Origin: a virus
Direction: 5' to 3' (one strand)
Virus record (IMG/VR): IMGVR_UViG_3300028569_002801
Span: 32,001-96,000 of that record
Length of the DNA stretch: 64,000 nucleotides
The first letter of the stretch is position 1. Each line of letters starts with the position of its first letter. The notes under the pieces were generated by a model. That model did no database searches, was not told the origin of the DNA, and saw nothing but the letters and a program-made list of their open reading frames with translations. Made by a program: the position numbers and the translations under genes. This document shows, in pieces, positions 10,220 through 42,514 of this stretch.

Positions 10220-10249
10220 AAACTAATAATAGTAAAAGTTTTTAAATTA

Positions 10250-10771
10250 TCAAAACTTATTACTTTTAATATAATTTTCTAACGCCCATAATGGTTGTAA
10301 ATTTCCTAATGAATTAATCACTTTGGGGACCTCTTCTTTATCAAATGAAGATATTGGTTTTATATGGTCTATATGCCATAAACCGTAGTTTTCCCAAGAC
10401 ATCCCTTCTTTAAAGTTTTTTTCTAAATGTTGTTTAAGATCTTCCGCACTATAACCCAAAATATTTATTGTGTGATCTTTTTTTGAAATCTTTAAATGTT
10501 TTATTGTCCGATAAAGTAAAGTCCTCCAAGAATGGACATGTTTGTTTTTTTTATAATAGTTTTTATAAAATTCTTTTAAATAATCTTTATTATTTTCTCT
10601 AAACGTTTTGGCTCTTTTCCTATGTTCTATTTTTATATCTTCGTAATTTTCTTTAAAATTATTAGATCTACATATTTTGCACTGTTCCCTATAACCATCT
10701 TTTCTTCTTTTATGTTTATGAAATTCTGTTAATGGTTTTTCAATTTTACAAATTATACATACTTTACACAT
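10250..10771 (-). CDS. HNH homing endonuclease, paralogue of 5843..6556
   Basis: CIIC...CKIC; GMSWENYGLWHIDHIKPISS...NLQPLWALEN. Confidence 0.88.
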   Translation of the reverse strand: MCKVCIICKIEKPLTEFHKHKRRKDGYREQCKICRSNNFKENYEDIKIEHRKRAKTFRENNKDYLKEFYKNYYKKNKHVHSWRTLLYRTIKHLKISKKDHTINILGYSAEDLKQHLEKNFKEGMSWENYGLWHIDHIKPISSFDKEEVPKVINSLGNLQPLWALENYIKSNKF

Positions 10772-10795
10772 ACATTATATAAATATTTACAAAAT

Positions 10796-10822
10796 AAAAA
10801 ACCCACCTTTATGGGGTGGGTT
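10796..10822 (-). terminator. intrinsic terminator
   Basis: Minus strand AACCCACC-7 nt loop-GGTGGGTT followed by T-run. Confidence 0.75.
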
Positions 10823-10841
10823 AATAAAATATTTTATTTTT

Positions 10842-11333
10842 TTATTCGTCAGATGCATCGCAATAATCATAACACTTATCCTCTAATTCAGAACATTCTA
10901 TTTCAAATTTTTGCATTCCACCAAAGAATTTTTTCTTACCTCTTAAATATAATTGGTTTTTTTCGCAATCATAAAATAATTCTAATTTAGTATCCATTCC
11001 TGGTTCCCAATTTTCTCCTCGTTCATATAAAAATTTATGTAGTTTTTTGTTACAACCTTCTTCAGGTCCATTTTCAAAAAATATAGGGTTATTTGACATG
11101 TCTACAACTTCTAATATGCTGTTACAACCTAACCCGTCTTTGGTTTGTGTTTCACAAGCAGCACCACGTAATACAACTTCCATAATTTCTAAACCACAAC
11201 TTGGATCAATTATCGTAAATTCTTTACCTCTAACTTTCATATCTAATTTAGAAATTCCAGATTCTGATTCTTTAATTATTCGTCTAACTATTCTAGTTAA
11301 ATCCGATTCAGTAAGTTTAATAATTTTTTTCAT
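10842..11333 (-). CDS. hypothetical Cys-rich protein with MKKIIKLTESDL leader (possible head-internal protein)
   Basis: N-terminal LTESDLxxIVxxIIKE leader, 8 Cys; own upstream motif and terminator. Confidence 0.6.
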   Translation of the reverse strand: MKKIIKLTESDLTRIVRRIIKESESGISKLDMKVRGKEFTIIDPSCGLEIMEVVLRGAACETQTKDGLGCNSILEVVDMSNNPIFFENGPEEGCNKKLHKFLYERGENWEPGMDTKLELFYDCEKNQLYLRGKKKFFGGMQKFEIECSELEDKCYDYCDASDE

Positions 11334-14245: not shown

Positions 14246-15847
14246 TTAACCAACTCTTATAGGTCTTGGACATATTAATCCAGTTTTTACCAATATCACT
14301 TCTTGAGGGTTAACAGAAGAGTTAACCGATTTACATAATGTAGGTGTTATTGTTATGTTTTGTATATTAACACTATCTTTTATCATTCCAAATAAATTGC
14401 AATGATCGCTTTCAACACAAGGAGTGTTTATGTATTGTACGATAGTTCCTGATATGGTCCCACTACCCGATAATTGTACAGTATAAGAAGTTGTGTAAGA
14501 ACTTAAATTTATATTACCTACTTCACACGCTGGATTAAAAGATGTTGATCCAACTGTCGATCCGGTTGTTGGTGATGATATCGTAAACCCACCTGTTTGG
14601 TTTGTTGTGATATTATTACTATAACTAATCGTAGGTGAAGTAATCGTATAAGCAGTTGTATTAACATTAAATAATAAATTCATATTAATAACGGTACCTA
14701 CAGGTAAAGGGTATGGACTAACACTTATCGACCAATTAGAGGTTTTTGTTGTTGAGTTACCTACCGTTATATTTGAACCAGGTGTTAAAATCAAACTTAC
14801 GTTATAATTTTGAAATAATTGTTGTGGTGTTAAAATCACTGTTTGACTTATAACTGTTAAATTAGAATCCTTAACATAAACAGTGTAAGTACCAGAAGAT
14901 AAACCAATAAAAGTATTAGATACTTGGTAATTTACAGAATCAATGGAATATAAATATGGTGATAATCCACCATTAGGGGTTATTGTTATAGAACCGTTAC
15001 TTGTTGTAGAACAAGTTGGGTTTGTCTTATTAACTGTCATTGTTAATGGTGGTGTTTGACAAATACCTGAGCTAACATATACAGTTGATCCATACGATAA
15101 TTGTCCGGTTAATGTCCAATTACCTGTTGGTGGTATAGTTGGTGATGCATAATATAAACCTCCCGGATATGTCCACCCACTAACGTTCCATTGTGTTGTA
15201 CCTGTATTATAATATATTGTTTGTGTATTGCTTGTCCAAGACGGATATCCATTTATTGTTGATCCTGAATTAAAATTAAATTGTGTTATATTTGTCCCTT
15301 GAGTAAGTTGTAAACACAAATCGTTTGGATATACGGGTGTCGGTGTAGGTGGTGGTAGACATTCGGTACAACCTGTAAACGGTCCATCAGATACTATTGG
15401 GAAATTACCAATATAAGTTTGTCCTGTATATAATGTTGTTCCACTGTTTGTCCAACAACCTATTTGTGTTGTTAACTGATAAACTGATCCACCACTTAAT
15501 GGGTTAACTAAATCTGCTAAATAATAAATAAAATTACCGGGAGTTTTACAATCCTCAAATGTATCGAGATAAAAACTATCATAACCAACGGTACATGTTG
15601 TTGTCGCGGTAAAATCGCCATAATAATCAACAACAGTCGCGGTATAATTACCGGGACTTAAATTAGTTAATAATGTCCCTTGTGAACCATTGTTCCAAGT
15701 AACATTATACGGAGACGTTCCTCCTGTTACAAATAACGCAATTAACCCATTGGTTGATTGAGGTGTTGACGCATTTATACTATCACACTCCAACCCCAAA
15801 GGTAAAATTGTTATGATATTACAACTATTTCCACTTAATTGTCCCAT
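14246..15847 (-). CDS. SprB-repeat-containing virion appendage protein
   Basis: GGTSPYNVTWNNG...NLSPGNYTATVVD and GGLSPYLYSID...GLSSGTYTVYVKD repeats; PPPTPTP linker. Confidence 0.75.
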   Translation of the reverse strand: MGQLSGNSCNIITILPLGLECDSINASTPQSTNGLIALFVTGGTSPYNVTWNNGSQGTLLTNLSPGNYTATVVDYYGDFTATTTCTVGYDSFYLDTFEDCKTPGNFIYYLADLVNPLSGGSVYQLTTQIGCWTNSGTTLYTGQTYIGNFPIVSDGPFTGCTECLPPPTPTPVYPNDLCLQLTQGTNITQFNFNSGSTINGYPSWTSNTQTIYYNTGTTQWNVSGWTYPGGLYYASPTIPPTGNWTLTGQLSYGSTVYVSSGICQTPPLTMTVNKTNPTCSTTSNGSITITPNGGLSPYLYSIDSVNYQVSNTFIGLSSGTYTVYVKDSNLTVISQTVILTPQQLFQNYNVSLILTPGSNITVGNSTTKTSNWSISVSPYPLPVGTVINMNLLFNVNTTAYTITSPTISYSNNITTNQTGGFTISSPTTGSTVGSTSFNPACEVGNINLSSYTTSYTVQLSGSGTISGTIVQYINTPCVESDHCNLFGMIKDSVNIQNITITPTLCKSVNSSVNPQEVILVKTGLICPRPIRVG

Positions 15848-15848
15848 A

Positions 15849-17684
15849 TTAGAATGTTGAACCGCTTAATTGTTTCCATCCACTGTTATCCTTATAATAA
15901 AGGTAATTATTATCCCAAGTTATTGAACCTGGTTCACCTGTAGTGTCAACACTACTTGTTGGTGTGTATGAGGTACTAATTACAAAATTAGGTACGTAAG
16001 TTGTATCCGAATTAATGGCATTAATACCTGTTCCTCCTAATACAACGCTTCTAGATCCACTTACTGTGTTATTTCCACCCCCAATAATTGCGGACATAAA
16101 TGAATTAACAGTGTTTCCTGAACCACCAATAATTGCAGATTGTTTAACATCATCAGACGGAGATAAAAAGGTTATTTCATTTTCATATCCACCAAGTATC
16201 GCCCCACCATCAGTATCACCACTAGTTACTATATTATTCATTCCACCTAATGATACTGATAAGGGTCCGTTAGACTCATTATTATCTCCGTGTGTAAAGG
16301 ATACAATACCGTAAGAAACCGTCCCGACACCACCAGCATGTGAATTATCACCACTCGCTAATGTTCCTTTATTTTGTGAATGTGAATATTGTCCCGATGC
16401 AATTGTAAAGTCTCCTTCGGCGTGTGAGCCAATACCTATGGCATTACTTCCTGAACCTTCACTATGTGAATAATCACCATAGGATGTCGTTAAAAACCCT
16501 TCAGCATGTCCATAGATACCATATGTATACGATTGCCCTTCTGATGATGAATACAAACCAATACTATAAGAACCAGATCCTTTGGATGTTGATCCGTCAC
16601 CTATTGCCTGTGTTCTTTGTCCTGTTGCGTTTGCATTACGTCCCCCAAAAACTTGATTACCTCCCCATGATGATGGAGGATTTGTATCTGACATAATTGC
16701 TTGTGCTCCTAATGTATCGACTGATGTGTCATATAAATAAACTATAGTATTTGTACCATCAAATGTTACCGCACTAACACTAAATACAGATGACGGGTAT
16801 AATGAAGAATATGAAATATCATCAAAAAATACAAATGAAGTTGTTCCTGTCGTAAAGTTTAGTGAAACGTCACTATATGAAGAATCTAAAGTACATATCC
16901 CTGCGGTACACCCTGTTAATAAATAACCGTCATTTGATCCTGTTTTGGTTAGAGTGCCATTTGCATGTGAGTAGTTCCCATAAGTTCTACTACCGTTACC
17001 CAATGAAAATGATAATGTTCCATAAGCGTTAGAACCGTTAGTTTGTGTTTCATCCCATATTGAGATGGGTGAACATCCGTGAACGTTTCTTACATAAAAA
17101 TCAACAAAACAATTTCCTGAAGATGATCCAGGTAGATTATAGTATGTTGTTGCACTTATGGTATTTGCGGTTAAACCATTTGTAAAATTAGTCGGACCAT
17201 TAACTGTTCCTCCTGTAAATACACTACTACCACCTGTAGTTAAACCCGTTACCGTGAACGTACCTCCTTGATTATTTGTGAATGTAATCGTGTCAATACT
17301 AAACGTTCCTCCTGTAACATATGTGTCTCCTGTAATTTGTACTCCGTTAACAAAAAGGGTACTAGCGGATAGTGTATTAGCCGTTACACCATTACTAAAA
17401 ATAGTCGCACCTGGAACTGTACCACCCGTAAATACGGAACCTGAAGTGACTCCCGTTATATTTACCGTACCTCCGGTACTATTAGTGATAGTTATTGTAC
17501 CTGTACCACTATTATATGTTCCGCCGGTAATAGTCACAGAAGGGTATGCGTCAAACACTTGTTGTATTGATGCTTTATAAGATGACCCCGCAGGATCTTG
17601 TGATGTATCTCCTGTTATTACGATGTGAAGTAAATCGTCTACGGTTACTCCACTCGCTAAGGTTCTTGTTGTTAATTTTGCCAT
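15849..17684 (-). CDS. tail fibre/adhesin with YadA-head-like repeats
   Basis: TGGT shaft repeats, 14-aa SHAEG/SHSEG repeats, GGxxN-SAII repeats, fibre-tip-like C-terminus. Confidence 0.75.
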   Translation of the reverse strand: MAKLTTRTLASGVTVDDLLHIVITGDTSQDPAGSSYKASIQQVFDAYPSVTITGGTYNSGTGTITITNSTGGTVNITGVTSGSVFTGGTVPGATIFSNGVTANTLSASTLFVNGVQITGDTYVTGGTFSIDTITFTNNQGGTFTVTGLTTGGSSVFTGGTVNGPTNFTNGLTANTISATTYYNLPGSSSGNCFVDFYVRNVHGCSPISIWDETQTNGSNAYGTLSFSLGNGSRTYGNYSHANGTLTKTGSNDGYLLTGCTAGICTLDSSYSDVSLNFTTGTTSFVFFDDISYSSLYPSSVFSVSAVTFDGTNTIVYLYDTSVDTLGAQAIMSDTNPPSSWGGNQVFGGRNANATGQRTQAIGDGSTSKGSGSYSIGLYSSSEGQSYTYGIYGHAEGFLTTSYGDYSHSEGSGSNAIGIGSHAEGDFTIASGQYSHSQNKGTLASGDNSHAGGVGTVSYGIVSFTHGDNNESNGPLSVSLGGMNNIVTSGDTDGGAILGGYENEITFLSPSDDVKQSAIIGGSGNTVNSFMSAIIGGGNNTVSGSRSVVLGGTGINAINSDTTYVPNFVISTSYTPTSSVDTTGEPGSITWDNNYLYYKDNSGWKQLSGSTF

Positions 17685-17708
17685 TTCTTTTTTATAATAT
17701 ATATAAGT

Positions 17709-17990
17709 TTATTGAAATTCATATGGTACTCCATCCATAAATTCAAATAAATCTGAATTTTGGAATTGTTTATAGTATATTTCAGTATCACAATAAACAC
17801 ACCCGTTATCATCAATTATTTTTACAACGTAACTAGTGTATGTTTCATATATCGCGGGTAATGTAAATGTGTATGGTATTGTTGGTGTTGTGTCTATGTA
17901 TTGACAAGTACCATAACAGGTGTCACAAACCCATATATCGTATGGTGATGTTCCTGATGTTACTGAATTAATTGTTACTATTGTTGACAT
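17709..17990 (-). CDS. small single SprB/Ig-like module protein (putative fibre adaptor)
   Basis: SGTSPYDIWVCD...VKIIDDNGC plus C-terminal FQNSDLFEFMDGVPYEFQ; paralogue of 21689..21976. Confidence 0.7.
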   Translation of the reverse strand: MSTIVTINSVTSGTSPYDIWVCDTCYGTCQYIDTTPTIPYTFTLPAIYETYTSYVVKIIDDNGCVYCDTEIYYKQFQNSDLFEFMDGVPYEFQ

Positions 17991-17994
17991 AATT

Positions 17995-19791
17995 TTAACA
18001 GTTTCCGTTTGGTGTGCATCTGAATGTTAACTTACCGTTACCGTCAACCTCAAATATTTGTGATATTGCATTACCACTTTGGTTGATAGGTACTTTTATG
18101 TATGTTAAACTCAAAGGTATTGTTAATGAACTATCTTCGTAAGCATATACTCCTGTTTGTATTGTATTCACATTAAATGATGTGAAGAAATTACCCACGA
18201 CACCAAAATTAGTGAGTTCACAAATAGGACAAGAGAGTGAAAATTCTCCTGATGCTCTCCATTCTTTATATTTTGGGGTCGGTGTTGGTTCAGGAGCTAA
18301 ACATTCTAAACAAGTAACATATGTTGTTGCAGTAGTCGCAGTAAAAGTATCTTGTGTTACTGATATAAATCCTGATGGTGGTGTATAACCCACATAGTTA
18401 CCGATATAATTATAACAATCCCCTGTGGTTTTTAAGATATCACCAATCAATACGTTTATCGGTGGATATGCGTTTTGTATAATCATGGTATTATTAGTAC
18501 AAGACGTGAATATAAATTGTGTTCCCATAGGGTATGATATTGGTATTGGTAACGCACATTCGGTATCGTCCGTACAAGTATTTCCCGATAATATCGTAGT
18601 TGTTCCTGTTACACAAGTAAATGATACGGTATTCTCTTGAGCACAAATACCAAAACTTGTATTACCCGTTATTATTAATGTTTCAGAGTTTCCTGAACAA
18701 CCAACCCAATTTACAGTACAACCACTTTCACTTGTTACCGTATAACAATAACATTGTGGAGTTGGTGTAGGTGTTGGTGTAGGTGTCGGCGTTACACAAA
18801 CCGAACAATCTGAATAAACGTCTAATACTTGTATTAAGTTTCTATTTGAAGATGCGGTTGTTTTACCGATATACGTTACACACTGTATTTGATTTGACGC
18901 ACTTCCGTATAAAAGTGCTAAGAATGTAGTTCCCGTACTAACAACAGACCCTGAATATGTTATTGGTTCTGTAATATAATAATGTTCACCCGTATCACAG
19001 TCCAATAAGTCTTTAACTGACGAACAAACAAAATCTCCGCTATCAACAACAAATGTTACTGTATCCGCCGATGGTGTTACAGGGCAATATGATGGTGTTG
19101 GTGTCGGAGTTGGTGTCGGAGTTGGTGTTGTCCCTGAAGTGGATATCGTTATTGTGGCAGTAAACGCACTACATATATCTGGTGTTGGTGTGGGAGTCGG
19201 TGTAGGTGTAGGGGTGGGGGTTGGTGTCAGAGTAGGTGTCGGGGTTGGAATATCACATTCTAACAATACGTCAAAATCTAAATCTGAACACGGATCTGTA
19301 GGAATTGGTGTTATTGAACATATTCCTTCGTACATTATGGTACTATCTAAATCGGGACATCCGTATGTTGTTGGGTTCTGCCCAAAAAAATCACAGGTTC
19401 CACCTAATGAATTACTTAAACACCAATTTGTTCCGTTAAAAAATATGTATCTCGGATTAGTTCCTCCTGTCCAATAATAATCCCCGCCATAATTACCTTC
19501 TAATGTATATGTGCCGTTATACCCACTATATGAACTAATAGGTATTGATAAGCAATAGTTATTTTGACAATACCCACTACAAAGTGAGTCATTACAGTCA
19601 GTAACCAAAGTAGCAACACCATCGATTGTAACGGTACTATTTACCAATGACCCAATAGTATAACAACCATCAGGTATATTTGTGTCACCCGTAATATTAA
19701 AGACTAAACCGAGCGTTGTCGAATAACTCCACCCACTTACACTAAAGTTTACACTACTATTTAAACAACTTTCTATGTTAACTAATGCCAT
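17995..19791 (-). CDS. Cys-rich modular protein with four (Thr-Pro)n linkers, putative virion appendage
   Basis: Small Cys-containing beta domains separated by PTPTPT tracts. Confidence 0.75.
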   Translation of the reverse strand: MALVNIESCLNSSVNFSVSGWSYSTTLGLVFNITGDTNIPDGCYTIGSLVNSTVTIDGVATLVTDCNDSLCSGYCQNNYCLSIPISSYSGYNGTYTLEGNYGGDYYWTGGTNPRYIFFNGTNWCLSNSLGGTCDFFGQNPTTYGCPDLDSTIMYEGICSITPIPTDPCSDLDFDVLLECDIPTPTPTLTPTPTPTPTPTPTPTPDICSAFTATITISTSGTTPTPTPTPTPTPSYCPVTPSADTVTFVVDSGDFVCSSVKDLLDCDTGEHYYITEPITYSGSVVSTGTTFLALLYGSASNQIQCVTYIGKTTASSNRNLIQVLDVYSDCSVCVTPTPTPTPTPTPQCYCYTVTSESGCTVNWVGCSGNSETLIITGNTSFGICAQENTVSFTCVTGTTTILSGNTCTDDTECALPIPISYPMGTQFIFTSCTNNTMIIQNAYPPINVLIGDILKTTGDCYNYIGNYVGYTPPSGFISVTQDTFTATTATTYVTCLECLAPEPTPTPKYKEWRASGEFSLSCPICELTNFGVVGNFFTSFNVNTIQTGVYAYEDSSLTIPLSLTYIKVPINQSGNAISQIFEVDGNGKLTFRCTPNGNC

Positions 19792-19854
19792 TGAATTATT
19801 ACTTTATTATATAAATAATCAAAAGTTTATTTTATTGATGGTTTGTTTTTAAAA

Positions 19855-21051
19855 TTATAAACTAAAGTCAATTCTGTTTACCCAATTACCTTCATTATCG
19901 TTTACCCAATACACCCATTTAACAGGGGTTTCTGTCGTTTTTAGTTTAACGTTTAAATATTCCTGATAACTGTACATGTCTTGTCTATGTAATACATTAC
20001 CTAACTCATTTTCAATTCCTATATATATAAATTTAAAATTTTCAGTATAAGGTATGTAAAGTTTGAACTCATATTCAATTTCCTTTAATTCGTACCAATC
20101 TGTATTATCGTTCACCGGTGGGTTTGTTCCTTTTATGGTTTCGGGATGTAACTTTTTATTTTTAAAGTTTATTCCCGCATAATTTTCATATTGTGTGTGT
20201 GTTCTAACGTCACCTAACCCATAAACCCCTAAAGCTATATTGTTATCCTCTTCTTGTAACATATGTCTTAATCTACGTTTAGAGTCGTTATCCATTTCCC
20301 ACCATTGTTTTTCAACAATACCATTATTTTTATTTTCTTGATTAAAGTCTGTCCAATGTTTTGTTCTACCTTCTCTTGTGTATTCATGCCAAACCACAGT
20401 CTTATGTGGGTGAAATAAATCGTAACCTAACGTATATGAACGAATAGATAAACTAATTTCATCACCAGCAAAATAGATATTAGGGTCATACTTATATTCT
20501 TCACAATGTTTTCCGATTGTAAAAAAGAAATGTCCACTAACAAATCTTGCGGGGATTGGTTTATCTAATGTTTGCCAATTTGGTATTGCGTGTGGTCTAA
20601 AAAGGATTGTTCCTCCCGGTGTGAAGTTAGACGCGACCATCATATATGGTTCAACATTTAATAATTGGTTATCTGATGGTCGGTACATTCCGGCATATGA
20701 TGTGATGATTGGTTTTTTTGAACCTGTTATATTCATCATTTCAATCAATTCCACATCCCAATCTTGTAAAAATCTATGATGTGAATCTAATTGTATGGTG
20801 TATTCTTCACCGTCCCATAATTTTTGAATTTCAGAACGAGCCCAACAAAGCCCTTTACTTTCACTCCAATGATAATCTAATATTTTAAATCTTTCATCAT
20901 TTGTGAATTCTTCCATCGATTCAGTTTCATCACGTTGCCAACAAATTCCAAATGTTAAATTTTCAGGGTGTTTTGCTTTATTAATACAATCCCTAATGGT
21001 TGGTAATAACTCAGGATCTCTATAAGATGCGATTTGTACAAATATTTTCAT
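19855..21051 (-). CDS. GT60-family polypeptide GlcNAc-transferase (Gnt1/Gnt2-like, PF11397-type)
   Basis: IFVQIASYRD, SKGLCWAR, GEEYTIQLDSHHRF..DWD (DxH), YDPNIYFAGDEISLSIRSYTLGYDLFHP...WHEY. Confidence 0.88.
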   Translation of the reverse strand: MKIFVQIASYRDPELLPTIRDCINKAKHPENLTFGICWQRDETESMEEFTNDERFKILDYHWSESKGLCWARSEIQKLWDGEEYTIQLDSHHRFLQDWDVELIEMMNITGSKKPIITSYAGMYRPSDNQLLNVEPYMMVASNFTPGGTILFRPHAIPNWQTLDKPIPARFVSGHFFFTIGKHCEEYKYDPNIYFAGDEISLSIRSYTLGYDLFHPHKTVVWHEYTREGRTKHWTDFNQENKNNGIVEKQWWEMDNDSKRRLRHMLQEEDNNIALGVYGLGDVRTHTQYENYAGINFKNKKLHPETIKGTNPPVNDNTDWYELKEIEYEFKLYIPYTENFKFIYIGIENELGNVLHRQDMYSYQEYLNVKLKTTETPVKWVYWVNDNEGNWVNRIDFSL

Positions 21052-21091
21052 ACAAATAAATTAGTTTTTTTTTCTTTTTTGTAAATCTTTA

Positions 21092-21667
21092 TTAACTTGA
21101 AGTGTACTTAATCTTCATTCCTAAAACATAAAGATTAGTATCATTTTGAAAAACACTTAAACCAAAAACATTATTTGATGTTATTCCAGACATATAAGGT
21201 AAAACATCCAATGATGTGAATTTATTGATATTATAACTATATGTCTGTCCTGTCGTTATTGTTGTGGCACTATAAAACGAATTTACGGGTCCGTATTGTA
21301 CGTTTATATCAGTAGAAACATTACCACTAAATGTTGGTATTGTTACCACTTCAGCGGATATCATAGAAGATAAATCGTTTGGAATTAATCCATTTATATA
21401 AACAGGGTCGGTACCTGCATTACAGGTACCAGCATAAAAGTTACCAATATAAGTAGGATTTGTTTCTGAACCTTTAAAGAAAATCTCTTTTATTTGATTA
21501 GTATTACCACTAAATATAGTACTTAATTGTTGTAACTCAACTTTATATGATGACCCGTAAAGGCTTTGTGACGTATCTGCAGTTGTTACAATATGTATAA
21601 TTGTAGTCGGAGTAATCGCCGATGATTGAGCTAATGTTCTATCTGTTAATAATTGGTATGTTGGCAT
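21092..21667 (-). CDS. short fibre/spike protein sharing its N-terminal anchor with 15849..17684
   Basis: LTDRTLA...IHIVTTADTSQSLYGSSYKVELQQL versus LTTRTLA...LHIVITGDTSQDPAGSSYKASIQQV. Confidence 0.7.
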   Translation of the reverse strand: MPTYQLLTDRTLAQSSAITPTTIIHIVTTADTSQSLYGSSYKVELQQLSTIFSGNTNQIKEIFFKGSETNPTYIGNFYAGTCNAGTDPVYINGLIPNDLSSMISAEVVTIPTFSGNVSTDINVQYGPVNSFYSATTITTGQTYSYNINKFTSLDVLPYMSGITSNNVFGLSVFQNDTNLYVLGMKIKYTSS

Positions 21668-21688
21668 AGTTTATTTAATAAATATTAT

Positions 21689-21976
21689 TTATTGGAAAAT
21701 ATAACCTACTCCGTCCATAAAATTAAAATATATATCATTTTGAAACGCCTTTTGGACCTCACAATTAATAACTGTCGAGTACACACATCCATTTGTATCA
21801 ACAATTCTTAAATAAAGGTAATTTTCGTTTGGAAAAAAGTCATCAGTATCAAATATAATATTTGGTGGTATAAAGGTACTCCCTGAAACAAAAAAACAAG
21901 ACGTGTTAGTTGAGTCACATATAAAAATATCATATGGTGGTTGTCCGCTCGTTACTCCTGTTATTTCTACGTTCAT
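21689..21976 (-). CDS. small single SprB/Ig-like module protein (putative fibre adaptor)
   Basis: SGQPPYDIFICD...LRIVDTNGC plus C-terminal FQNDIYFNFMDGVGYIFQ. Confidence 0.7.
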   Translation of the reverse strand: MNVEITGVTSGQPPYDIFICDSTNTSCFFVSGSTFIPPNIIFDTDDFFPNENYLYLRIVDTNGCVYSTVINCEVQKAFQNDIYFNFMDGVGYIFQ

Positions 21977-21990
21977 ATATTATAAATACT

Positions 21991-22560
21991 TTAAGGGCAA
22001 GAAGGTAAATCGGTTACCACACCGGCAGTAACTTCTGCGATTGCATTATATGTTGGTGAACCACCTATTTTAACTAAAAAGTATCCTGTTAATAATGTTG
22101 GTGAACACCCAACATTATTAGAATATAAAATAGAACCGATTTGAGGTTCACTTTCATCAAGATACGCCAAAAAAGCCGCATTAACGGCACAAGTACCACC
22201 TGTAACACAATTAAATGCGGTACAGGCACTTAAAAATGAAGTATAAAAGTATCCCGTAATATTAGTTGAACTACCAAAAGGTGTGTAGTATGGATGTACT
22301 GTGCTTGGACCACAAGTTGGTGTCGGAGTTGGTGTAGGGGTTGGGGGTGGGTCATAACAAGAAACTAATTCAAAGTATTCACATCCTGTTGAATCAATAG
22401 TTTTAACCATTAATGTATTCGCACTTGAATAGAAGGAATTAAGTGTATATGTCCCTCCTGTTGTACTTGTTAAATAACAGTTATTTCCATATTCATCACA
22501 TAGGTAAACACTCAATGGTGGTGTTCCCCCTGTTGTTCCTGATATCGTAATAACACTCAT
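21991..22560 (-). CDS. SprB/Ig-like module + PT linker + Cys-containing tip domain
   Basis: GGTPPLSVYLCD...VKTIDSTGC then DPPPTPTPTPTPT. Confidence 0.7.
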   Translation of the reverse strand: MSVITISGTTGGTPPLSVYLCDEYGNNCYLTSTTGGTYTLNSFYSSANTLMVKTIDSTGCEYFELVSCYDPPPTPTPTPTPTCGPSTVHPYYTPFGSSTNITGYFYTSFLSACTAFNCVTGGTCAVNAAFLAYLDESEPQIGSILYSNNVGCSPTLLTGYFLVKIGGSPTYNAIAEVTAGVVTDLPSCP

Positions 22561-25034
22561 TATTGATAAACTAATGTAAACCCCTCTTCTGTTATCATAA
22601 AATAACTATCTTCAGTTAATATTATAAATGATTGACTACAATCGTTACATACTACCTCATATTCTATTTTTAATCTTAAATAAAATTTACAATCACCTAA
22701 AGGATCAACATCACCAACACATTTTGAAATAATTTCAAATGTATTTGTTAATAAATCAATAGTAAAACTTTGTATGTTCGGTATACTACCTAAAATACCT
22801 TCGATTGTTGATTGCCAAAGAGTGTCTTGTGGAATATCATTTAGTGTTGTTGCAGTATAAAATGGTACAGTATATATAGTATCTCCCGATTCACAATCCG
22901 TATATACCAAGAAATCACCATTTTCTGTTGTAATTGTAAATACGTCCTCAGTTAAAATAAAACACGTATCACCAGATCCTGGACAATCAATTTCTATTTG
23001 ACAACTAAATACCGCCCCACTAAAACTACATCCGGTATATCCCGAAATAATATCAATATACCCCTCATTTAACATTTCCGATAAACCTCTTTTAGTTCCA
23101 ACAGTAGTCGTAAAAGTACTATTACAAATATTAAATAACTGATAAGATGTTGGAGAGATACCGTTACAATCTATTGTAAAATCTTGTATATCGTAACAAC
23201 CATTACTATCAGTTATTTCAACATAATAGTTTCCAGCGGATAAACCACTTACAGTTGATCCCGTTTGTCCGTTACTCCAATTATACGTAAAAGTTGGTTC
23301 TCCTTGATATATTACTACGGAAGCCGATCCGTCATTTCCATTAACACAATCTATTTTTTGTATGGAAGTTAAAAGTTGTCCTCCTGTTGTTATTGTAAAA
23401 CCTGTGGATACCGCACAACCAACACTATCAGTGACGGTTATCGTATAATTTCCTGGTAGTAAATTATTATATGTTATTCCTGTCGATGTGGTATCTATTA
23501 GGGTGTCTCCGTTACTTAATACATAATCTAAAACTCCCGTATATCCTGAAAATACCTCAATAACCGCAACACCGTTTGGTTCCCCACATGTTGACCCGGT
23601 AGTTGTTGCACTAACAATAAATTTTTGAGTAGATGTTATATTTAATGTTGTTGTATAAACACAACTTGTTCCTGAACCTGAAATTGTTAATTCATATGTA
23701 TCATTTTGTAAGTTAGTAAAACTATTAGTTTGATTAAGACTTGTATTTTGATAAACGGTGTTACCACTTAAACCTGATAAAGTGTATGTGTAATATCCTC
23801 CAAGCCCTGCAATTTGCACATCTATTTGTCCATTATTCTGATTGCAGTCTGAGTTGGTAACAATTATGTCTACCACATTAAATCCTCCTACGGGACTTAG
23901 AAACCCACTTAATGTTGTTTCACAAAAATTGGCGTCTCTTACAACAACTTGATAAGTTCCAGCAGCAAGGTTTGTTAATGTGAACACGTTTGATAATGTA
24001 TACCCAACTTGGGCGGTAGAAGCCGAATAATAGAAAGGAGCGGTACCTCCAGTTAAAAAATACGTCAGACTACCATCAGATGCGAAACAACTTGGTGTTG
24101 ATGCACTTAATAACCCTATACCTAATGGATCAGCAGCACCTACAAATTCACTTTTAGTTACCTCACAACCATTAATATCTGTTACCGTACAAGTATATAC
24201 TCCTTGTGTTAATCCCGTAATTAATTGTGTGGTTTCTCCATTACTCCACAAATACGTATAAGGTCCGGTTCCCGTAACTCCTGTTACCGCCAATTTACCT
24301 TTATCAATAACACAATTAGATGTATTCACCTTCCAAAAACCAAAATCTAAAGAAGTACTTGCAGATATTACCGCGTTTTCAGTGTTAGCCGTGGTACCAC
24401 CTGAATCAAAAACAGTAGCATAATAAATACCACTAGGTAATCCGTTAAAATCATATGGTAAAGTTCCTGTTGTTTCTACAACGTAAGGAACACCATCTTG
24501 ATAAAGAAGAATAGTATATGGGGCACCTGAAGATGTTGCACTTATAGTTAAAAATCCGGTATCTTGTCCACAAGTAGTTCCTGATGCGGTAACTACATTT
24601 GCCTCAAAACATCCCGTTACATTAACATTAACATATAATTCATTATTTTGTAAATTAAGAGTATCATTTATTCTGAACACATAAGTACCTCCTGTTAGCC
24701 CTGTAAATGTTATAGGAGAACTACTTGTTTGAGCAGTTAAAGTTCCCGGAATAATATTATCAATTGTGTATGGGGCAACACCACCATATGAAGTGAAAGT
24801 CACACTACCTGTTGCTGCGGAGCAAACCCCCGTAACTTGGAATCCGTAACTAAGTGGTCCTGATGTACATGTTTCTGTACAAGTTACCCCTGTAGCAATA
24901 TAAACCCCTCTTGCCGAACCAGAATATGATTCATCTATACATATACTTTCACCAAGTGAAACTCCGAATTGGTATAATCCACAACAGTCTACATATTCAT
25001 AAACACCATCCGTTAATCCTGATACACAAGCCAT
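22560..25034 (-). CDS. multi-SprB-repeat virion protein
   Basis: About seven repeats such as GTGPYTYLWSNGETTQLITGLTQGVYTCTVTDINGC; two LTED...TE motifs. Confidence 0.8.
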   Translation of the reverse strand: MACVSGLTDGVYEYVDCCGLYQFGVSLGESICIDESYSGSARGVYIATGVTCTETCTSGPLSYGFQVTGVCSAATGSVTFTSYGGVAPYTIDNIIPGTLTAQTSSSPITFTGLTGGTYVFRINDTLNLQNNELYVNVNVTGCFEANVVTASGTTCGQDTGFLTISATSSGAPYTILLYQDGVPYVVETTGTLPYDFNGLPSGIYYATVFDSGGTTANTENAVISASTSLDFGFWKVNTSNCVIDKGKLAVTGVTGTGPYTYLWSNGETTQLITGLTQGVYTCTVTDINGCEVTKSEFVGAADPLGIGLLSASTPSCFASDGSLTYFLTGGTAPFYYSASTAQVGYTLSNVFTLTNLAAGTYQVVVRDANFCETTLSGFLSPVGGFNVVDIIVTNSDCNQNNGQIDVQIAGLGGYYTYTLSGLSGNTVYQNTSLNQTNSFTNLQNDTYELTISGSGTSCVYTTTLNITSTQKFIVSATTTGSTCGEPNGVAVIEVFSGYTGVLDYVLSNGDTLIDTTSTGITYNNLLPGNYTITVTDSVGCAVSTGFTITTGGQLLTSIQKIDCVNGNDGSASVVIYQGEPTFTYNWSNGQTGSTVSGLSAGNYYVEITDSNGCYDIQDFTIDCNGISPTSYQLFNICNSTFTTTVGTKRGLSEMLNEGYIDIISGYTGCSFSGAVFSCQIEIDCPGSGDTCFILTEDVFTITTENGDFLVYTDCESGDTIYTVPFYTATTLNDIPQDTLWQSTIEGILGSIPNIQSFTIDLLTNTFEIISKCVGDVDPLGDCKFYLRLKIEYEVVCNDCSQSFIILTEDSYFMITEEGFTLVYQ

Positions 25035-25060
25035 ATATAATTTTTTTCTTTATTTTTTTA

Positions 25061-28000
25061 TTAAGGACAAACCCCCATGTTTATTGCTGATACAAATCTT
25101 GGAGATGTACTTGTTGGTATTGTAGTTGAGCAAACATTAAATGTTCCTCCACCTAAAAATGAAGTAGTCGTCCCAACCCCACTACAGTTATATGTGGTAT
25201 AAGCTCCTCCAGTTGGACTAAACGTTACTGCCCACATATATGTCACGCAAGGTGTAGGGGTTGGTGTAGGTGTTGGAGTTGGAGTTGGCGTCAAAACTGT
25301 TTGTTGTGAACAATTTATTTGTAAATCAACCCCTATGTTAAGATATAAGGTTTTACTTGTAAAATCGTCGTAACATGTTGAATTACTAACTACAAGTGTA
25401 CTTCCAGCCAAATAAAAATTTAATCCGTAATTGTATAATTCAACTAAATATGTATTAACCGCATTTACCAAATCAGTGGTTGATGGGTAACCACCAATAC
25501 CATACCCTGTATAAAATTGTTCTTGTACTAAAATTTGTGAATCTAACCTACAGTCAATATACCAATTAGTAACTATACTATTAATATCACAATCACTCTG
25601 TGTGAATCCACTATTAGTTAAAACGTTATTTAACGCATAATTCAATATTGCTGCCGGATCGGTTTTTACATCACATTTTAATGTCTGATCAATACAATCA
25701 TAACTAAATGGTTCTCCGTTATACGTACACGGAATACAAGAAACAGGAATAAATGTACAACCTCTTTGTCTTCTCCAAACAAACTTTTGTCTATGGAAAA
25801 TAGAATTTTCCATTTTTTGTCCTGTTAACCATAAAGTGGTTCCTGGAACTACTTGTTCTAATAGTCTTTGCCAATGATCACCTAAACCTAAAGTATAGTC
25901 TATCATTTTTTGATATGTAAACTTATTAGAAGGTATTCCTACAGTTTGATCAGACTCCAAATATCTCCAATAAACTGATTGTAACGTAGGGTAACCTCCC
26001 GTTTTACCATCAAATATTGTTTGTCGATTTCTAACATTAATGAAGTTATTATAAAAACTTTGAGCGAACTCAAAGAATGTTTTTTCTTTTGGTTTTGGGT
26101 TAATAAATGTCCAATCTATATTACCAGGATATGGGTATGGTGCCGTCAATCCTGAATTTGGTATAGGGTATCCGTACTTTACAGACATATCCCATATATC
26201 ATAAGTAATACCTTGACCCATGTTAGTATATAACTCAATATTTTTAGAATTAATTACTAACCTATCATCACTAACAGTATAATCTACCCCATTAAAATTT
26301 GACCCGTCTTTTCTATTCCCCGTATCATTAACTGCCCAAGATTTTTGATTATCACTTATCTTAGTTAACGTATACCCTTCTGCAATATCAGGAAAATCTC
26401 TAAACCTATCCATATATTCTTGTCCATATGTGAATGGTTTTAATGATGATATTAAATATGGGTTGGTTGGGTTAAAGGATGAGTTTACAGAGTCAGCCTC
26501 TTGATTTGATCTATGTTCAGGACTTGTCTCAAACCATCCAGCCCCTTTTTGGAAGAAGTTGTCGTCTGTAATTGCGGGACTTTGGGGGTACCCATCAGAA
26601 TCAACTCCGTAATCGTTTAATGTCGTTGTTATTAAATTTATAACCCCACTTGTAGTATATCCTGTGTAAATCACACCCAATAAACTAAATGTATTAGCCG
26701 GATCAAAAACAGGTGTCTCTACATATGTTGTCCCTCCAGAAATTTGACAATACTTTTCGTAAAAATCATTATAATTTATTTTAGTATCAGCCAAATAAAT
26801 AACTTCATTAAACTCTAATAATGCTTCAGGGGCACCTATAAATCTCATAACATATTCCAAAGATTGTCTAGTCCCCTTTGTTCTAAACATGTGTGCGGAG
26901 TTTAATATTATATTTCTATAGTATTGATAGTTTAACTCTGTTGGTGTGTCTGAAACTGACTGCCCAGGAAAAACTTGTTTAGCGTTTGGATCAAATACTG
27001 AATTTAAAAACCCTTCATTTGTTATTGGTGAGATGTCTGAATTAATCCCTAATGTTTGAGCTAAATTTGTGAGTAGTTGTGAAGGTATATCATTACCTAC
27101 TTGGTAATTTACAGAGTTCATATATGCTAACGCATCAATAAACTTTTTAACTTCATCAAAACTTCTACCGTATATTTGTAATACCTTTTCAATTTTTTGA
27201 TCATCAGTATCAAACTCTTTGAATGATCCTGTAATTAAAAATCTACTTATTAAATTTGTTTTATATTCGTCTAATTTTTCAGCAATACTCTGTATTTGAG
27301 ATATATATTGTTCAAATTTAGTACTATTAATATCTAAGTTCCAATACTTGTCTATCGGCCAAGTTACTTGTTTTGTAAATAAAGTATATTTACCTGCCGA
27401 ATCGTAATCAGGATATGTAAATTTAGCACTGTATTTTGGATACACACTTCTATTTAACATAAAATCTTCAACCTCATCAAAGTTATCTAAAAATACCTTT
27501 TCTGTTGTTTCATTATTTAATTTTATAACTAAATTAAAAGTTGATGCACTTTGTCCGGGAAACATATCCCCTTTCACTGTTAATGTAAGAGTACCCCCTG
27601 TCATATTCTCAACAGGAATCATATCCGTTACTTTGTATTCTGTACTAACATCTCTAAAATAAACGGCATAACTTTCAAAGTTATTAGTCATATCCCTAAA
27701 TGGACTAACAGTTATCGGTCTAGTTAATATGTTTCTAGCGGCGTTTTCAGAATAATCAATACTAAATGGGTTATAGATTAAACCAGTATTAATATCAAAA
27801 GTGGTTTCATCGTTTTTTCTATCATAAACAATATTAGATGCAGTATTTCCTGTATATAATCCTGACGTTTGTCTTGGATAAACCTCTAAAGCCGCAGGGA
27901 AAAAATTTATTACCTTTATAATTGAGGTTGACATTCTTTTCTGTAGGGAACCATACAACGAAAAACTAGTGATTTCCGATATATCAAAATTTGGGTAAAC

Positions 28001-28240
28001 TTTAAAAGTCTTTTCAATAATCCTTTTTACCTCTTCAATATTATCTATTTTAAGGTTTTCTAAAGTATAAGGATTAGAAAATATACCAGTGTCAAATTTT
28101 CTATTTGTCTTTTCATATATTGCACTAGTAAACTCAAAATTACCTTGCGTCAAACCTCCCCCATCCACAATTTGGAATCCTACAAGGTTATCAGAAAAGG
28201 TTTTAACCCCACCAGGTGGAAAAAATATTTTATTTGCCAT
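25061..28240 (-). CDS. large virion structural protein (baseplate/tail-associated) with C-terminal PT linker and Cys domain
   Basis: YYRNIILNSAHMFRTKGTRQSLEYVMRFIG resembles the P2 gpI/gp7-like KGT wedge motif; structural cluster context. Confidence 0.65.
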   Translation of the reverse strand: MANKIFFPPGGVKTFSDNLVGFQIVDGGGLTQGNFEFTSAIYEKTNRKFDTGIFSNPYTLENLKIDNIEEVKRIIEKTFKVYPNFDISEITSFSLYGSLQKRMSTSIIKVINFFPAALEVYPRQTSGLYTGNTASNIVYDRKNDETTFDINTGLIYNPFSIDYSENAARNILTRPITVSPFRDMTNNFESYAVYFRDVSTEYKVTDMIPVENMTGGTLTLTVKGDMFPGQSASTFNLVIKLNNETTEKVFLDNFDEVEDFMLNRSVYPKYSAKFTYPDYDSAGKYTLFTKQVTWPIDKYWNLDINSTKFEQYISQIQSIAEKLDEYKTNLISRFLITGSFKEFDTDDQKIEKVLQIYGRSFDEVKKFIDALAYMNSVNYQVGNDIPSQLLTNLAQTLGINSDISPITNEGFLNSVFDPNAKQVFPGQSVSDTPTELNYQYYRNIILNSAHMFRTKGTRQSLEYVMRFIGAPEALLEFNEVIYLADTKINYNDFYEKYCQISGGTTYVETPVFDPANTFSLLGVIYTGYTTSGVINLITTTLNDYGVDSDGYPQSPAITDDNFFQKGAGWFETSPEHRSNQEADSVNSSFNPTNPYLISSLKPFTYGQEYMDRFRDFPDIAEGYTLTKISDNQKSWAVNDTGNRKDGSNFNGVDYTVSDDRLVINSKNIELYTNMGQGITYDIWDMSVKYGYPIPNSGLTAPYPYPGNIDWTFINPKPKEKTFFEFAQSFYNNFINVRNRQTIFDGKTGGYPTLQSVYWRYLESDQTVGIPSNKFTYQKMIDYTLGLGDHWQRLLEQVVPGTTLWLTGQKMENSIFHRQKFVWRRQRGCTFIPVSCIPCTYNGEPFSYDCIDQTLKCDVKTDPAAILNYALNNVLTNSGFTQSDCDINSIVTNWYIDCRLDSQILVQEQFYTGYGIGGYPSTTDLVNAVNTYLVELYNYGLNFYLAGSTLVVSNSTCYDDFTSKTLYLNIGVDLQINCSQQTVLTPTPTPTPTPTPTPCVTYMWAVTFSPTGGAYTTYNCSGVGTTTSFLGGGTFNVCSTTIPTSTSPRFVSAINMGVCP

Positions 28241-38011: not shown

Positions 38012-39850
38012 TTATGAAAAGTCTACGGTTTTTAGACTCTTAACTCTCACTTTAATGTCCTTGTTATTAAATCTAACTTGGTACACTTGATCGGGTTCTG
38101 CAAATATTGTATCGTCAATTAATGCAATTTCTCTTGTTGTTTTATCAAGATATTTTTGAGAAGTTTCAGATGAAGAGTATTGCCCACCAACTTTATTATA
38201 AACCTTTAAGTCTGATAGTGTTGATACCCCTGCAACATTTTGTATTAACCTTCTTACATCTGAAACGTTTACATTTTGTCCCAATTCTCTATTTCCTGGC
38301 TCCATATAGTTGGAGACGGAATTGATAATCTCAGTAATCACTTGTCCTTGGTTTCTATCTGATTCCATCACCACATAAATATCAAATTCAAGATCAATAA
38401 CTTTAGCAACGTCTATAGAGATATAATCATTAATCATTCTATATTTTGATAGGTATGTCGCTAAATTGGATTTTAAATTATTAGATACGACTTGTGTTAA
38501 TTTACCGTCAGTATCATAAGATAATATTTGGATTTTAATTTTATTGTTATTTTCAGTTATTGAAACCTTTGCTGGTGCTCCGTATTTACCAGGCATTGTG
38601 TCAATAATAGATTTGTAGTCATTTACTGTTACCGCCCTTTTTTGTGCGGCAAAATTAAATGTAACCATATTTCTAACTTCTTCGGTTGTTGGTGGATTTG
38701 CTCCACCTATTGCTGCAGTTACATTATTAATTGCTAATGATTGTAATACATTAGTGTTAACGATATCAGAAGGTCCCGTTAATGCAAAATCTATTGTCCC
38801 CACTTGATTTATAACACTGACACCTACATTAGTCGCCAATCCACCACCAATTCTATATTGTACAAATATAGTTGTACTTGGTTGTACTGTTAAACCTAAT
38901 CCTATATTATTTTGATAATTTGCTAAATCTAATTTAATACCGTTTCTTGCAAAATCAGCAAGTTGTTGATTTGGTGTCGTTGTTCCTCCACCAAATTGTA
39001 CTTTCATAAACCCTTCAGGTGTATACTCAGTAATGAATCTATTTTCTGTTTTAATATACTTACCAACCTTTACCCCGGCTTTGTCCGTTGGTTTTGTTAT
39101 ATCTTCAATAAATACAGTATCTTCGGCTAGAGCGTCGACTTCATACCATCTATTCTGAGAACTTAAAAAATCCCCGTATGTTGGTATGTTAGGATAACTT
39201 GTCCCGTCTTTTTGTATAATTGATGTTACCCCTAAAACGTTTCTTTCAGGTAAAAAAAAATTAAAAAATGGAACAACGTCAGCTGGATTAATAACTCTTT
39301 TAAATACTTTTGTAGTTCCATTAACTACTACCTCTCTTTTTGTAATAACGTAATTTATAATTTTATTATTAGCGTCAAAAGTTGGTCTTTTTGTTCTGTT
39401 TACAAATCCTTCATTATTATATTGTGTTGAGAAGTCAATGTCGTAAACTGTTTCAAATGTTGTCCCCGCACCATTAAATTGTGATCCAGCACGTAAGATA
39501 CCTAAATATCTATAATCCTCACTATCACCAAGTGGTGGTACAGTAATAGAAACATCAACCACAGCGACTGAAGGACGATAACCCGGTATTTTTAAACCAT
39601 AAGTTCTTGCTATGTTATATATAGAAGATCTTTGTTGTGCATATTGTAAAACCGTTTCTTGTATACTTCTGTCTATATGGAAATGTAAGTTATCGGCAAC
39701 TGCCGCATTTAAATCCATTAATACTGAAAACACAGAAGCGTCGTTAAAATTTTGTACTAACTCAGGATAATACTGTTTTGTATAATTTATTAAATCCTGT
39801 CTTAGACCCTGAAAGTCCCTATTAGTATAATTAATTTTTTGATTAGCCAT
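38012..39850 (-). CDS. baseplate wedge subunit (T4 gp6/baseplate J-like)
   Basis: INYTNRDFQGLRQDLINY, ARTYGLKIPG, YRIGGG, AAIGGA...QKRAVTVNDY. Confidence 0.88.
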   Translation of the reverse strand: MANQKINYTNRDFQGLRQDLINYTKQYYPELVQNFNDASVFSVLMDLNAAVADNLHFHIDRSIQETVLQYAQQRSSIYNIARTYGLKIPGYRPSVAVVDVSITVPPLGDSEDYRYLGILRAGSQFNGAGTTFETVYDIDFSTQYNNEGFVNRTKRPTFDANNKIINYVITKREVVVNGTTKVFKRVINPADVVPFFNFFLPERNVLGVTSIIQKDGTSYPNIPTYGDFLSSQNRWYEVDALAEDTVFIEDITKPTDKAGVKVGKYIKTENRFITEYTPEGFMKVQFGGGTTTPNQQLADFARNGIKLDLANYQNNIGLGLTVQPSTTIFVQYRIGGGLATNVGVSVINQVGTIDFALTGPSDIVNTNVLQSLAINNVTAAIGGANPPTTEEVRNMVTFNFAAQKRAVTVNDYKSIIDTMPGKYGAPAKVSITENNNKIKIQILSYDTDGKLTQVVSNNLKSNLATYLSKYRMINDYISIDVAKVIDLEFDIYVVMESDRNQGQVITEIINSVSNYMEPGNRELGQNVNVSDVRRLIQNVAGVSTLSDLKVYNKVGGQYSSSETSQKYLDKTTREIALIDDTIFAEPDQVYQVRFNNKDIKVRVKSLKTVDFS

Positions 39851-39852
39851 AT

Positions 39853-40317
39853 TTAAATGTTTATAATTACAAATTCTTTACTTCCAAAAGCCTTATTTTC
39901 GTCAGTATAGTCAATTTTTAGTTTTGCGGTGTATTCTGCAGTGTTTGCTCCGGGTATTTTATATATACTAGCCTGTCCCAAAAGTTCGTAATCCAATTGT
40001 CCAACAACCTCATCAGTTTCAGTGTAGGGTTCAATCGTTATACTATTAATTAAAAGATTAGGTATGTATTTTGCAACTTGTTCTTCAATGTCTGATTTAA
40101 TGTTTTCAAATGTTTCACCATCTAATGGTTCAAATATGAATTCATAAATTCTAGTACCAAAATCAGGTAAATAATACCTACTACCTTTTCTTGTCAAAAT
40201 TAAATGTAAAAGATTTGTTCTTATCTCTTCATCTGAAAATTGAGTTAATAGTAAATAATCCCCGACATTACTTTGTCTAAAAGGAAAACTTATTCCATAT
40301 GTTCTACCATCTGCCAT
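39853..40317 (-). CDS. baseplate wedge subunit (gp25/GPW-like)
   Basis: GISFPF, IRTNLLHLILTRKGSRYYLPDFGTRIYEFIFEP; start reassigned to MADG at 40317 because the longer ORF start overlaps a terminator and promoter motif. Confidence 0.9.
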   Translation of the reverse strand: MADGRTYGISFPFRQSNVGDYLLLTQFSDEEIRTNLLHLILTRKGSRYYLPDFGTRIYEFIFEPLDGETFENIKSDIEEQVAKYIPNLLINSITIEPYTETDEVVGQLDYELLGQASIYKIPGANTAEYTAKLKIDYTDENKAFGSKEFVIINI

Positions 40318-40365
40318 ATCTAATAAATATAGTGTTGCTAATTTTCTAATAAATAGATATAAAAT

Positions 40366-40393
40366 AAAAAATCCCAACTTACCGTTGGGATTT
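40366..40393 (-). terminator. intrinsic terminator ending the replication operon
   Basis: AAATCCCAAC-GGTAA-GTTGGGATTT plus T-run. Confidence 0.8.
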
Positions 40394-42489: not shown

Positions 42490-42514
42490 TTTTAATTTAT
42501 TTTAATAATTTATT

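Follow-up and report, generated by a model that had tools for sequence, protein, structure and literature searches.

Which molecule is the acceptor of a glycosyltransferase whose gene is placed among the fiber-type genes of a phage? This question is raised by the window analyzed in this paper, a stretch of 64,000 bases that corresponds to bases 32001-96000 of the 114,715-base IMG/VR record IMGVR_UViG_3300028569_002801. At 19855..21051 of the window (minus strand), the gene for a 398-residue protein of glycosyltransferase family 60 (GT60) is surrounded by genes whose products contain tracts of alternating threonine and proline, here called Thr-Pro (TP) tracts. Among the low-complexity linkers of phage fibers and bacterial secreted proteins, the Thr-Pro type is one of the most frequent, and it is normally viewed as an inert spacer. 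In protists, the Trypanosoma cruzi mucin enzyme (OGNT), which an earlier note on this DNA places in GT60, and Dictyostelium Gnt2/ModB act on Thr of mucin-like repeats, and Gnt1 of Dictyostelium and Toxoplasma has the hydroxyproline of Skp1 as its acceptor. Concerning the phage enzyme, it is fairly likely that the soluble protein O-glycosylates Thr of the (TP)n linkers in neighboring fiber-type proteins in the host cytoplasm. This interpretation is supported by comparative genomics, not by chemistry.

The GT60 enzyme

The family assignment was first made in the same earlier note, prepared from the letters alone, and the profile search suggested there bore it out. The 398-residue protein matches PF11397, which we take, with the earlier note, to be CAZy family GT60, at 224.5 bits (E 3.5e-66, cut-off 21). 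The alignment falls into two stretches (profile positions 2-44 and 95-350), and about 50 profile positions are absent. The whole protein is also matched by phrog_24687, annotated 'glycosyltransferase'. All four motifs of the GT60 set that had been reported for this gene were located in the translation: IASYRD (7-12), DSH (89-91), FAGDE (194-198), and GYDLFHP (209-215). Among 35 homologues with 34-82% identity, D89, S90, and H91 (the DxH motif), F194, G196, E198, and H222 are invariant, and the enzyme looks catalytically intact.

In the AlphaFold2 model, with a predicted local distance difference test (pLDDT) score of 94.5, a GT-A catalytic domain (residues ~1-310) is followed by a six-strand beta domain (325-397). 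When this model was compared to the PDB with Foldseek, all of the ~50 best matches were GT27 polypeptide N-acetylgalactosamine (GalNAc) transferases, with probability 1.0 and E values down to 3.5e-11. This agrees with the published view of GT60 and GT27 as sister families, which have a common DxH motif and a common way in which Ser/Thr of polypeptides is O-glycosylated, and GT60 is confined to prokaryotes and protists (PMC7185993). Like the GT27 enzymes, the phage protein has a DxH metal site, a predicted retaining mechanism, Thr/Pro-rich candidate acceptors, and a beta-rich domain on the C-terminal side of the catalytic domain. It differs from them in that this domain is a small module of six strands and not a ricin-type lectin, and in its setting, which is not the Golgi lumen. 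Sequence searches of the PDB, with the single protein or with a 35-sequence profile, gave nothing useful, and the GT27 link comes from the fold search alone.

It had been stated that the enzyme has neither a signal peptide nor a transmembrane anchor, and this was confirmed, as the protein opens with the first beta strand of the fold (MKIFVQIASYRD) and has no hydrophobic N-terminal segment. Such a protein would be soluble and thus presumably cytoplasmic. A soluble, cytoplasmic enzyme, moreover one placed by PHROGs in the category 'moron, auxiliary metabolic gene and host takeover', might modify a host protein in a takeover or anti-defense role, by analogy with Gnt1 acting on Skp1. That role is considered very improbable for a gene that sits in the late structural block and not among the early genes, whose full-length homologues on bacterial chromosomes adjoin the bacteria's own TP proteins, and for which no candidate host target is known.

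The GT60/PF11397 family is large: clustering at 50% identity divides it into 4,340 clusters, and giant proteins in which as many as five GT60 domains are present belong to it. In the representative library, P0121-P0132 and others are proteins of 800-2461 residues that have two to five tandem GT60 domains and no TP tract of their own.

Thr-Pro tracts around the GT60 gene

The TP tracts of the window are gathered around the GT60 gene. The (TP)4 DNA pattern has 16 matches in the window, all at 18758-25291, and 0 in 100 dinucleotide-preserving shuffles. All tracts with at least four units, (TP)>=4, are found around the gene, no more than 1.1 kb away on its downstream side and 4.2 kb on its upstream side. 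The codons of the tracts are mixed synonyms in roughly the usual proportions of the genome; therefore, it is at the level of the protein that the repeat is maintained.

The best candidate acceptor is the 598-residue Cys- and Thr-rich protein encoded directly downstream of the GT60 gene (17995..19791, minus strand), which consists of small beta domains joined by (TP)n linkers. These linkers are encoded at 19180-19248, 19090-19128, and 18757-18792, and a short EPTPTP is added at ~18272-18295. An AlphaFold2 model of moderate quality (pLDDT 68, predicted template modeling score 0.29), used solely for showing domains and disordered linkers, displays the linkers as disordered between the domains. 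Two proteins encoded upstream of the GT60 gene on the same strand also carry tracts. A 189-residue protein (21991..22560) has an SprB-like N-terminal module, a (PT)5 linker at 22315-22344, and a C-terminal domain, and a 1059-residue protein (25061..28240) has (TP)7 at 25250-25291, just ahead of a small C-terminal Cys-containing domain. At a distance of 35 kb from the GT60 gene, a 2124-residue protein (55648..62022, minus strand) contains a short PNPTPTPIPNPTPTPT stretch at 58435-58485, with PTPTPT at 58435-58452.

The tracts that the earlier note had listed near 19180, 19090, 18757, 22315, 25250, and 58435 were thereby recovered. Three others did not hold as TP tracts: the one at ~15335-15358, in a 533-residue protein, is only a weak PPPTPTP, the one at 18272 is only the EPTPTP given above, and the one at ~50740-50820, in a 2336-residue open reading frame (48380-55390), is a (TTPSA)n Thr/Pro/Ser repeat and not TP. 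The statement that replication genes have no such tract was correct for the ribonucleotide reductase, DnaB, exonuclease, UvsX-like, SSB, primase, and SbcC genes of the window.

Conservation of the pairing in close relatives

The close relatives comprise 45 IMG/VR loci in which the GT60 protein is 54-87% identical to that of the window. In nearly all 45, a TP protein of 530-600 residues with three TP tracts is encoded 0.06-0.9 kb downstream of the GT60 gene, and some loci have extra TP proteins upstream. Orthologues of the 598-residue protein were found at this distance (0.06-0.9 kb downstream) in 41 related loci. When these orthologues are aligned, it can be seen that the T and P columns are invariant, that the globular domains are ~50% identical, and that tract lengths vary from 7 to 26 residues. 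The invariance of the tracts amid domains with ~50% identity, together with the mixed codons, is read as a sign of probable selection on the TP tract.

Four large records of relatives, searched whole, indicate the same arrangement. In a 99%-complete relative of 292 kb, all four (TP)>=4 tracts are in the two genes that flank GT60, within 1.5 kb. In three other relatives (records of 214-229 kb), a single match of the (TP)>=4 pattern is more than 8 kb from GT60, the others being within that distance, and the reversed-pattern control gave 0 matches. Four loci (L151, L182, L197, and L199) have the same synteny as the clade of the window, with GT60 at ~10001-11230 and the TP protein at ~12075-13700. 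Their TP protein is an orthologue 47-53% identical to that of the window, and the GT60 protein encoded just upstream is only 39-46% identical. This divergence points to a swap of the enzyme gene inside a module that is itself conserved, and the pairing has been kept. In one further locus (L024:11266-13359), an extra domain of ~100 residues is inserted inside the first TP linker of the TP protein; from this case, TP linkers seem to be sites of domain insertion.

The same relatives allow the position of the acceptor within the fiber-type proteins to be considered. The entire block 14246-25034 is Thr-rich, proteins without a TP tract included, and the enzyme might glycosylate phage structural proteins off the TP linkers, either on Thr/Ser-rich beta domains (SprB-like modules, 14-17% Thr) or on host-made hydroxyproline. 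Hydroxyproline is used by Gnt1-type GT60 enzymes, according to the earlier note, and in another phage lineage, described below, a GT60-like gene is paired with a PF13640 oxygenase. The TP columns, however, are invariant while the domains drift, and among the unrelated proteins encoded beside GT60, the recurrent element is the TP tract, with no globular domain recurring. A PF13640 hydroxylase was not found in G000-G004, although a host enzyme could be its source. Glycosylation off the linkers is thus judged quite improbable, and modification of the TP linkers themselves is preferred.

The earlier note had proposed that the rest of the genome be searched for prolyl hydroxylases and further glycosyltransferases. 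The first part of this search was negative, with no PF13640 prolyl hydroxylase in the source record or in four relatives (G001-G004, one of them 99% complete). The second part was positive in the relatives, in which GT2 and GT4 genes, as well as a ThyA-family gene, are present outside the GT60 locus. Islands with several GT2-/GT4-type glycosyltransferase genes were observed at G002:C1:83604-96010 and G003:C1:80079-102078, ~70-95 kb from GT60. These islands belong to a part of the genome outside that covered by the record of the window.

The pairing in bacteria and distant phages

Beyond the close relatives, 198 loci of phages and bacteria, which were not picked for TP, were examined. A T+P tract is near the GT60 gene in 83 of them and further out in 52, and the density ratio is 4.1. 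After clustering of GT60 at 60% or 80% identity, the density of T+P tracts within 2.5 kb is still 3.5 times that of the flanks at 2.5-10 kb; clustering at 50% or 40% merged nearly all sequences into few clusters, and those rows were left out. Each of 16 other two-residue tract types (SP, AP, EP, KP, GS, GA, and others) was found in at most 9 of the 198 loci. Among distant viral loci, with GT60 at 38-77% identity, TP adjacency occurs in about half.

The bacterial sample consists of 80 loci with GT60 proteins 34-55% identical to that of the window, those of Verrucomicrobiales being the closest. T+P-rich segments are found within 2.5 kb in 17 loci (369 kb searched) versus 6 further out (924 kb searched). 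The bacterial TP-tract proteins that adjoin GT60 are of at least 4 unrelated kinds and come from several phyla. The first kind is represented by lipoproteins of Acidobacteriota that combine a twin-arginine signal and a lipobox Cys with (TP)5-10 and a Ferritin_2 domain. For these lipoproteins, export by the twin-arginine translocation (Tat) pathway after cytoplasmic glycosylation would be possible. They were observed at L086:8641-9705(-), L090:8610-9668(-), L079:12340-13407(-), and five similar loci, and several are divergently transcribed from GT60. The second kind comprises small proteins with a Tat signal that consist of TP almost throughout, in one alphaproteobacterium and one Acidimicrobiaceae genome. 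Sphingomonas proteins of 1171-1341 residues form the third kind, with TP/SP-rich linkers and a C-terminal Rv2525c-like (glycoside-hydrolase-like) domain; their N-terminal 700 residues have no family match. In the Sphingomonas loci (L127:4859-8374(+) and L129:5971-9996(+)), the stop codon of the TP gene overlaps the GT60 start codon, and a possible membrane segment was observed. The fourth kind is a Verrucomicrobia protein of 403 residues.

The pairing was also examined in the reverse direction. Among 72 viral records picked for (TP)8 alone, 11 carry PF11397, in 7 of which it is within 2.5 kb of the tract. As a comparison rate, of 50,697 phage records searched by tblastn with the GT60 enzyme, 4 had a relative. 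The co-occurrence of GT60 and TP tracts, proposed as a check in the earlier note, was thus observed in bacteria and distant phages as well as in relatives.

A different arrangement was observed in smaller-genome phages. At L250:838-5801, L279:763-4099, L287:3-4208, and L312:3291-8293, a short GT60-like gene (24-36% identical) is accompanied by genes for a radical SAM/SPASM protein, a PF13640 2-oxoglutarate (2OG)-Fe(II) oxygenase, and another glycosyltransferase, beside TP-rich proteins. The TP-rich proteins in these loci match minor-tail and tail-fiber PHROGs, and the gene group looks like a protein-tailoring cassette.

A wider interpretation, held only tentatively, is that GT60 represents a widespread and hitherto unrecognized prokaryotic system of cytoplasmic mucin-type O-glycosylation, in which N-acetylhexosamine (HexNAc) would be placed on Thr of (TP)n in phage fiber proteins and in bacterial proteins, including Tat-exported ones. 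Such a system might be the source of protist GT60 and perhaps of GT27.

Exceptions and possible non-protein acceptors

The clearest exception is found in Xanthomonas jumbo phages. In Xoo-sp13 and XacN1, a homologue with ~36% identity is beside a carbamoyltransferase gene and near DNA polymerase, RNase H, and NUDIX genes, and in Xoo-sp13 no (TP)>=4 tract is near the GT60 homologue. The link between GT60 and TP tracts is not universal. Xoo-sp13 has five short TP tracts, all in large proteins encoded far from GT60, one annotated as mucin-16-like and one as a host-specificity protein. The carbamoyltransferase, of 765 residues, is encoded directly after the GT60 homologue in both phages (L001:13390-15687 in Xoo-sp13 and L049:9409-11706 in XacN1), and the two genes may represent a two-step sugar modification.

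These phages are one reason to consider that GT60 acts on a non-protein acceptor, such as host lipopolysaccharide, capsule, a cell-wall polymer, or phage DNA, in which case the TP neighborhood would be a mere insertion in a variable fiber module. Phage glycosyltransferases are usually interpreted as acting on non-protein acceptors (PMC12619734; PMC12801897), and separate GT2 and GT4 genes are present in the relatives. However, characterized GT60 enzymes act on polypeptides by the account of the earlier note, a mode shared by GT60 and GT27 (PMC7185993), and the nearest folds are all polypeptide transferases. The enzyme also has no membrane segment, a feature that modifiers of envelope glycans often have. 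As to phage DNA, the thymidylate-synthase-family gene of the relatives could in principle be a hydroxymethylase, but its score is like that of true ThyA (276-311 bits), and in G001 it is more than 200 kb from GT60. Furthermore, TP is the sole tract type enriched beside GT60, and TP adjacency recurs in bacteria of several phyla, where the structure of a phage module can't apply. A non-protein acceptor is therefore regarded as unlikely.

Besides the Xanthomonas phages, several points weigh against modification of the TP linkers by GT60. We know of no biochemical or mass-spectrometric data on a GT60 from any phage or prokaryote. Among the GT60 loci, 58% have no T+P-rich tract within 2.5 kb, and GT60 is present in just 2 of the 14 near-complete phage records that have (TP)8. 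The other 12 have long TP tracts but no GT60; therefore, TP tracts serve as linkers without GT60. The synteny within the clade is inherited, so that the phage clade of the window counts as one event, with the exception of L151, L182, L197, and L199. The phage fiber module itself clusters TP proteins, and the adjacency thus partly restates that the gene is within a fiber module. For the 598-residue protein, family searches and fold searches of Atlas and BFVD led to uncharacterized phage proteins only.

Proposed modification and comparison to known systems

In the modification proposed here, the gene product would be a soluble GT60 enzyme with a GT-A fold and a retaining mechanism that acts, most likely, in the host cytoplasm during infection. 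The sugar donated would be a HexNAc, probably alpha-linked N-acetylglucosamine (GlcNAc) from the host pool of uridine diphosphate (UDP)-GlcNAc. The acceptors would be Thr hydroxyls of the (TP)n linkers in the surrounding fiber-type proteins, before or during virion assembly, and the 598-residue protein immediately downstream would be the first target. The modified linkers could be extended, protease-resistant, or shielded. Thr is a likelier acceptor than hydroxyproline, since the search of this lineage gave no prolyl hydroxylase, and the Gnt1-like hydroxyproline route was set aside for this reason.

Comparison to the protist enzymes shows likeness in family and chemistry and differences in setting. 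The phage protein belongs to the same Pfam family, keeps DxH, FxGxE, and the downstream His, and has a GT-A fold nearest to GT27. It differs in its phage and prokaryotic host setting, in the extra C-terminal beta domain, in the missing profile positions, and in the strict (TP)n repeats of its candidate acceptors. In T. cruzi mucins, alpha-GlcNAc is attached to Thr by a UDP-GlcNAc:polypeptide alpha-GlcNAc-transferase (PMC3769586), and the candidate acceptors of the phage enzyme are Thr/Pro-rich repeats as well. Gnt2 and OGNT have a type II membrane anchor and work in the Golgi lumen, neither of which applies to the phage GT60. It resembles Gnt1 in being soluble and presumably cytoplasmic; unlike the Gnt1 pathway, it has no prolyl hydroxylase partner (a PhyA-like 2OG-Fe(II) oxygenase) in the record or in G001-G004.

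Two other systems may be compared. The streptococcal enzymes GtfA/GtfB are soluble cytoplasmic glycosyltransferases of the GT-B fold (GT4) that attach GlcNAc to Ser/Thr repeat adhesins before export by accessory Sec, and are encoded by neighboring genes. The phage locus is similar in having a soluble enzyme, a low-complexity repeat of a surface fiber protein as the candidate acceptor, and adjacent genes for enzyme and acceptor. It is unlike that system in that GT60 has a GT-A fold, the repeats are TP and not Ser-rich, and there is no accessory Sec export. In mycobacteriophages, phage-encoded glycosyltransferases decorate the phages' own structural proteins, at the C-terminal ends of capsid and tail-tube subunits, in the host cytoplasm (Freeman et al. 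2023, as described in PMC12619734). Going by that description, the present case would be alike in that a phage-encoded glycosyltransferase modifies proteins of the phage itself in the host cytoplasm; its gene adjoins those of a putative structural block. They differ in that the candidate sites of the present phage are internal TP linkers of fiber-type proteins, the enzyme is a GT60, and the host is non-actinobacterial.

Literature searches returned no paper linking GT60 or PF11397 to phages or to bacterial TP proteins, in agreement with the earlier remark that such an enzyme-substrate pairing had not been described in phages. If the proposal is correct, phages would possess appendages with a mucin-like sugar coat, which bears on adsorption, protease stability, and recognition by hosts or grazers. 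For bacteria, it would mean a new way of making glycoproteins in which no lipid carrier and no periplasmic oligosaccharyltransferase is required. The origin of mucin-type initiation by GT60 and GT27 in eukaryotes could, in that case, be followed back to prokaryotes and their viruses.

Other features of the window

The source record has an estimated completeness of 38%, which implies a genome of ~300 kb. The GC content of the window is ~31%, and nearly all genes are on the minus strand. Baseplate wedge genes (Baseplate_J/gp6-like and gp25-like; phrog_219, phrog_261, phrog_43, and PF04865) are located at 38012..40377 (minus strand) and mark the start of a baseplate and fiber block that reaches down to ~12001. 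This block is composed of large open reading frames, mostly without a family match, a few of which have SprB repeats or a PKD domain. With gene order read along the minus strand, the GT60 gene is positioned within the block after the baseplate genes, and from this position its neighbors are inferred to be virion parts. In searches of the larger neighbors against family libraries only, the sole virion-type match was a weak one, that of the 533-residue protein to phrog_26672 ('virion structural protein').

It had been claimed that GT60 is the only enzyme in a structural block of ~28 kb. In the Pfam and PHROG libraries, no gene at 12001-40377 other than GT60 matched an enzyme family, and several large open reading frames had no match of any kind. 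The claim stands in that no second enzyme-family match was found, and it holds only within the reach of these libraries.

Several Thr-rich and SprB-type proteins are encoded around the GT60 gene, all on the minus strand. The 533-residue protein with the weak PPPTPTP (14246..15847; 16.5% Thr) has one SprB repeat (PF13573, 34 bits), and an 824-residue protein (22560..25034; 15% Thr) has three SprB repeats (PF13573, 63.9 bits) and no TP tract. A 611-residue protein (15849..17684; 14% Thr) matches phrog_25468, a family whose function is not known, and a 191-residue protein (21092..21667; 14% Thr), encoded directly upstream of GT60, has no family match. Two SprB-like mini-modules, of 93 residues (17709..17990) and 95 residues (21689..21976), are paralogues (BLASTP 39% identity, E 8e-18), and the latter is also a paralogue of the N-terminus of the 189-residue protein. 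Three paralogous SprB-like modules (~70-95 residues, motif GxxPYDIxxCD) therefore flank the GT60 gene, at 17709-17990, 21689-21976, and 21991-22200. Two of these are stand-alone open reading frames, and in the third, another domain is attached through the (PT)5 linker.

Upstream of the replication genes, the two giant open reading frames at 48380-55390 (2336 residues) and 55648-62022 (2124 residues) have no PHROG family match. Replication and recombination genes (ribonucleotide reductase, DnaB, exonuclease, UvsX-like, and SSB) occupy 40630-47356, and a second replication and repair group, with RuvC-like, primase, exonuclease, SbcC, and DNA methyltransferase genes, is found below 12001.

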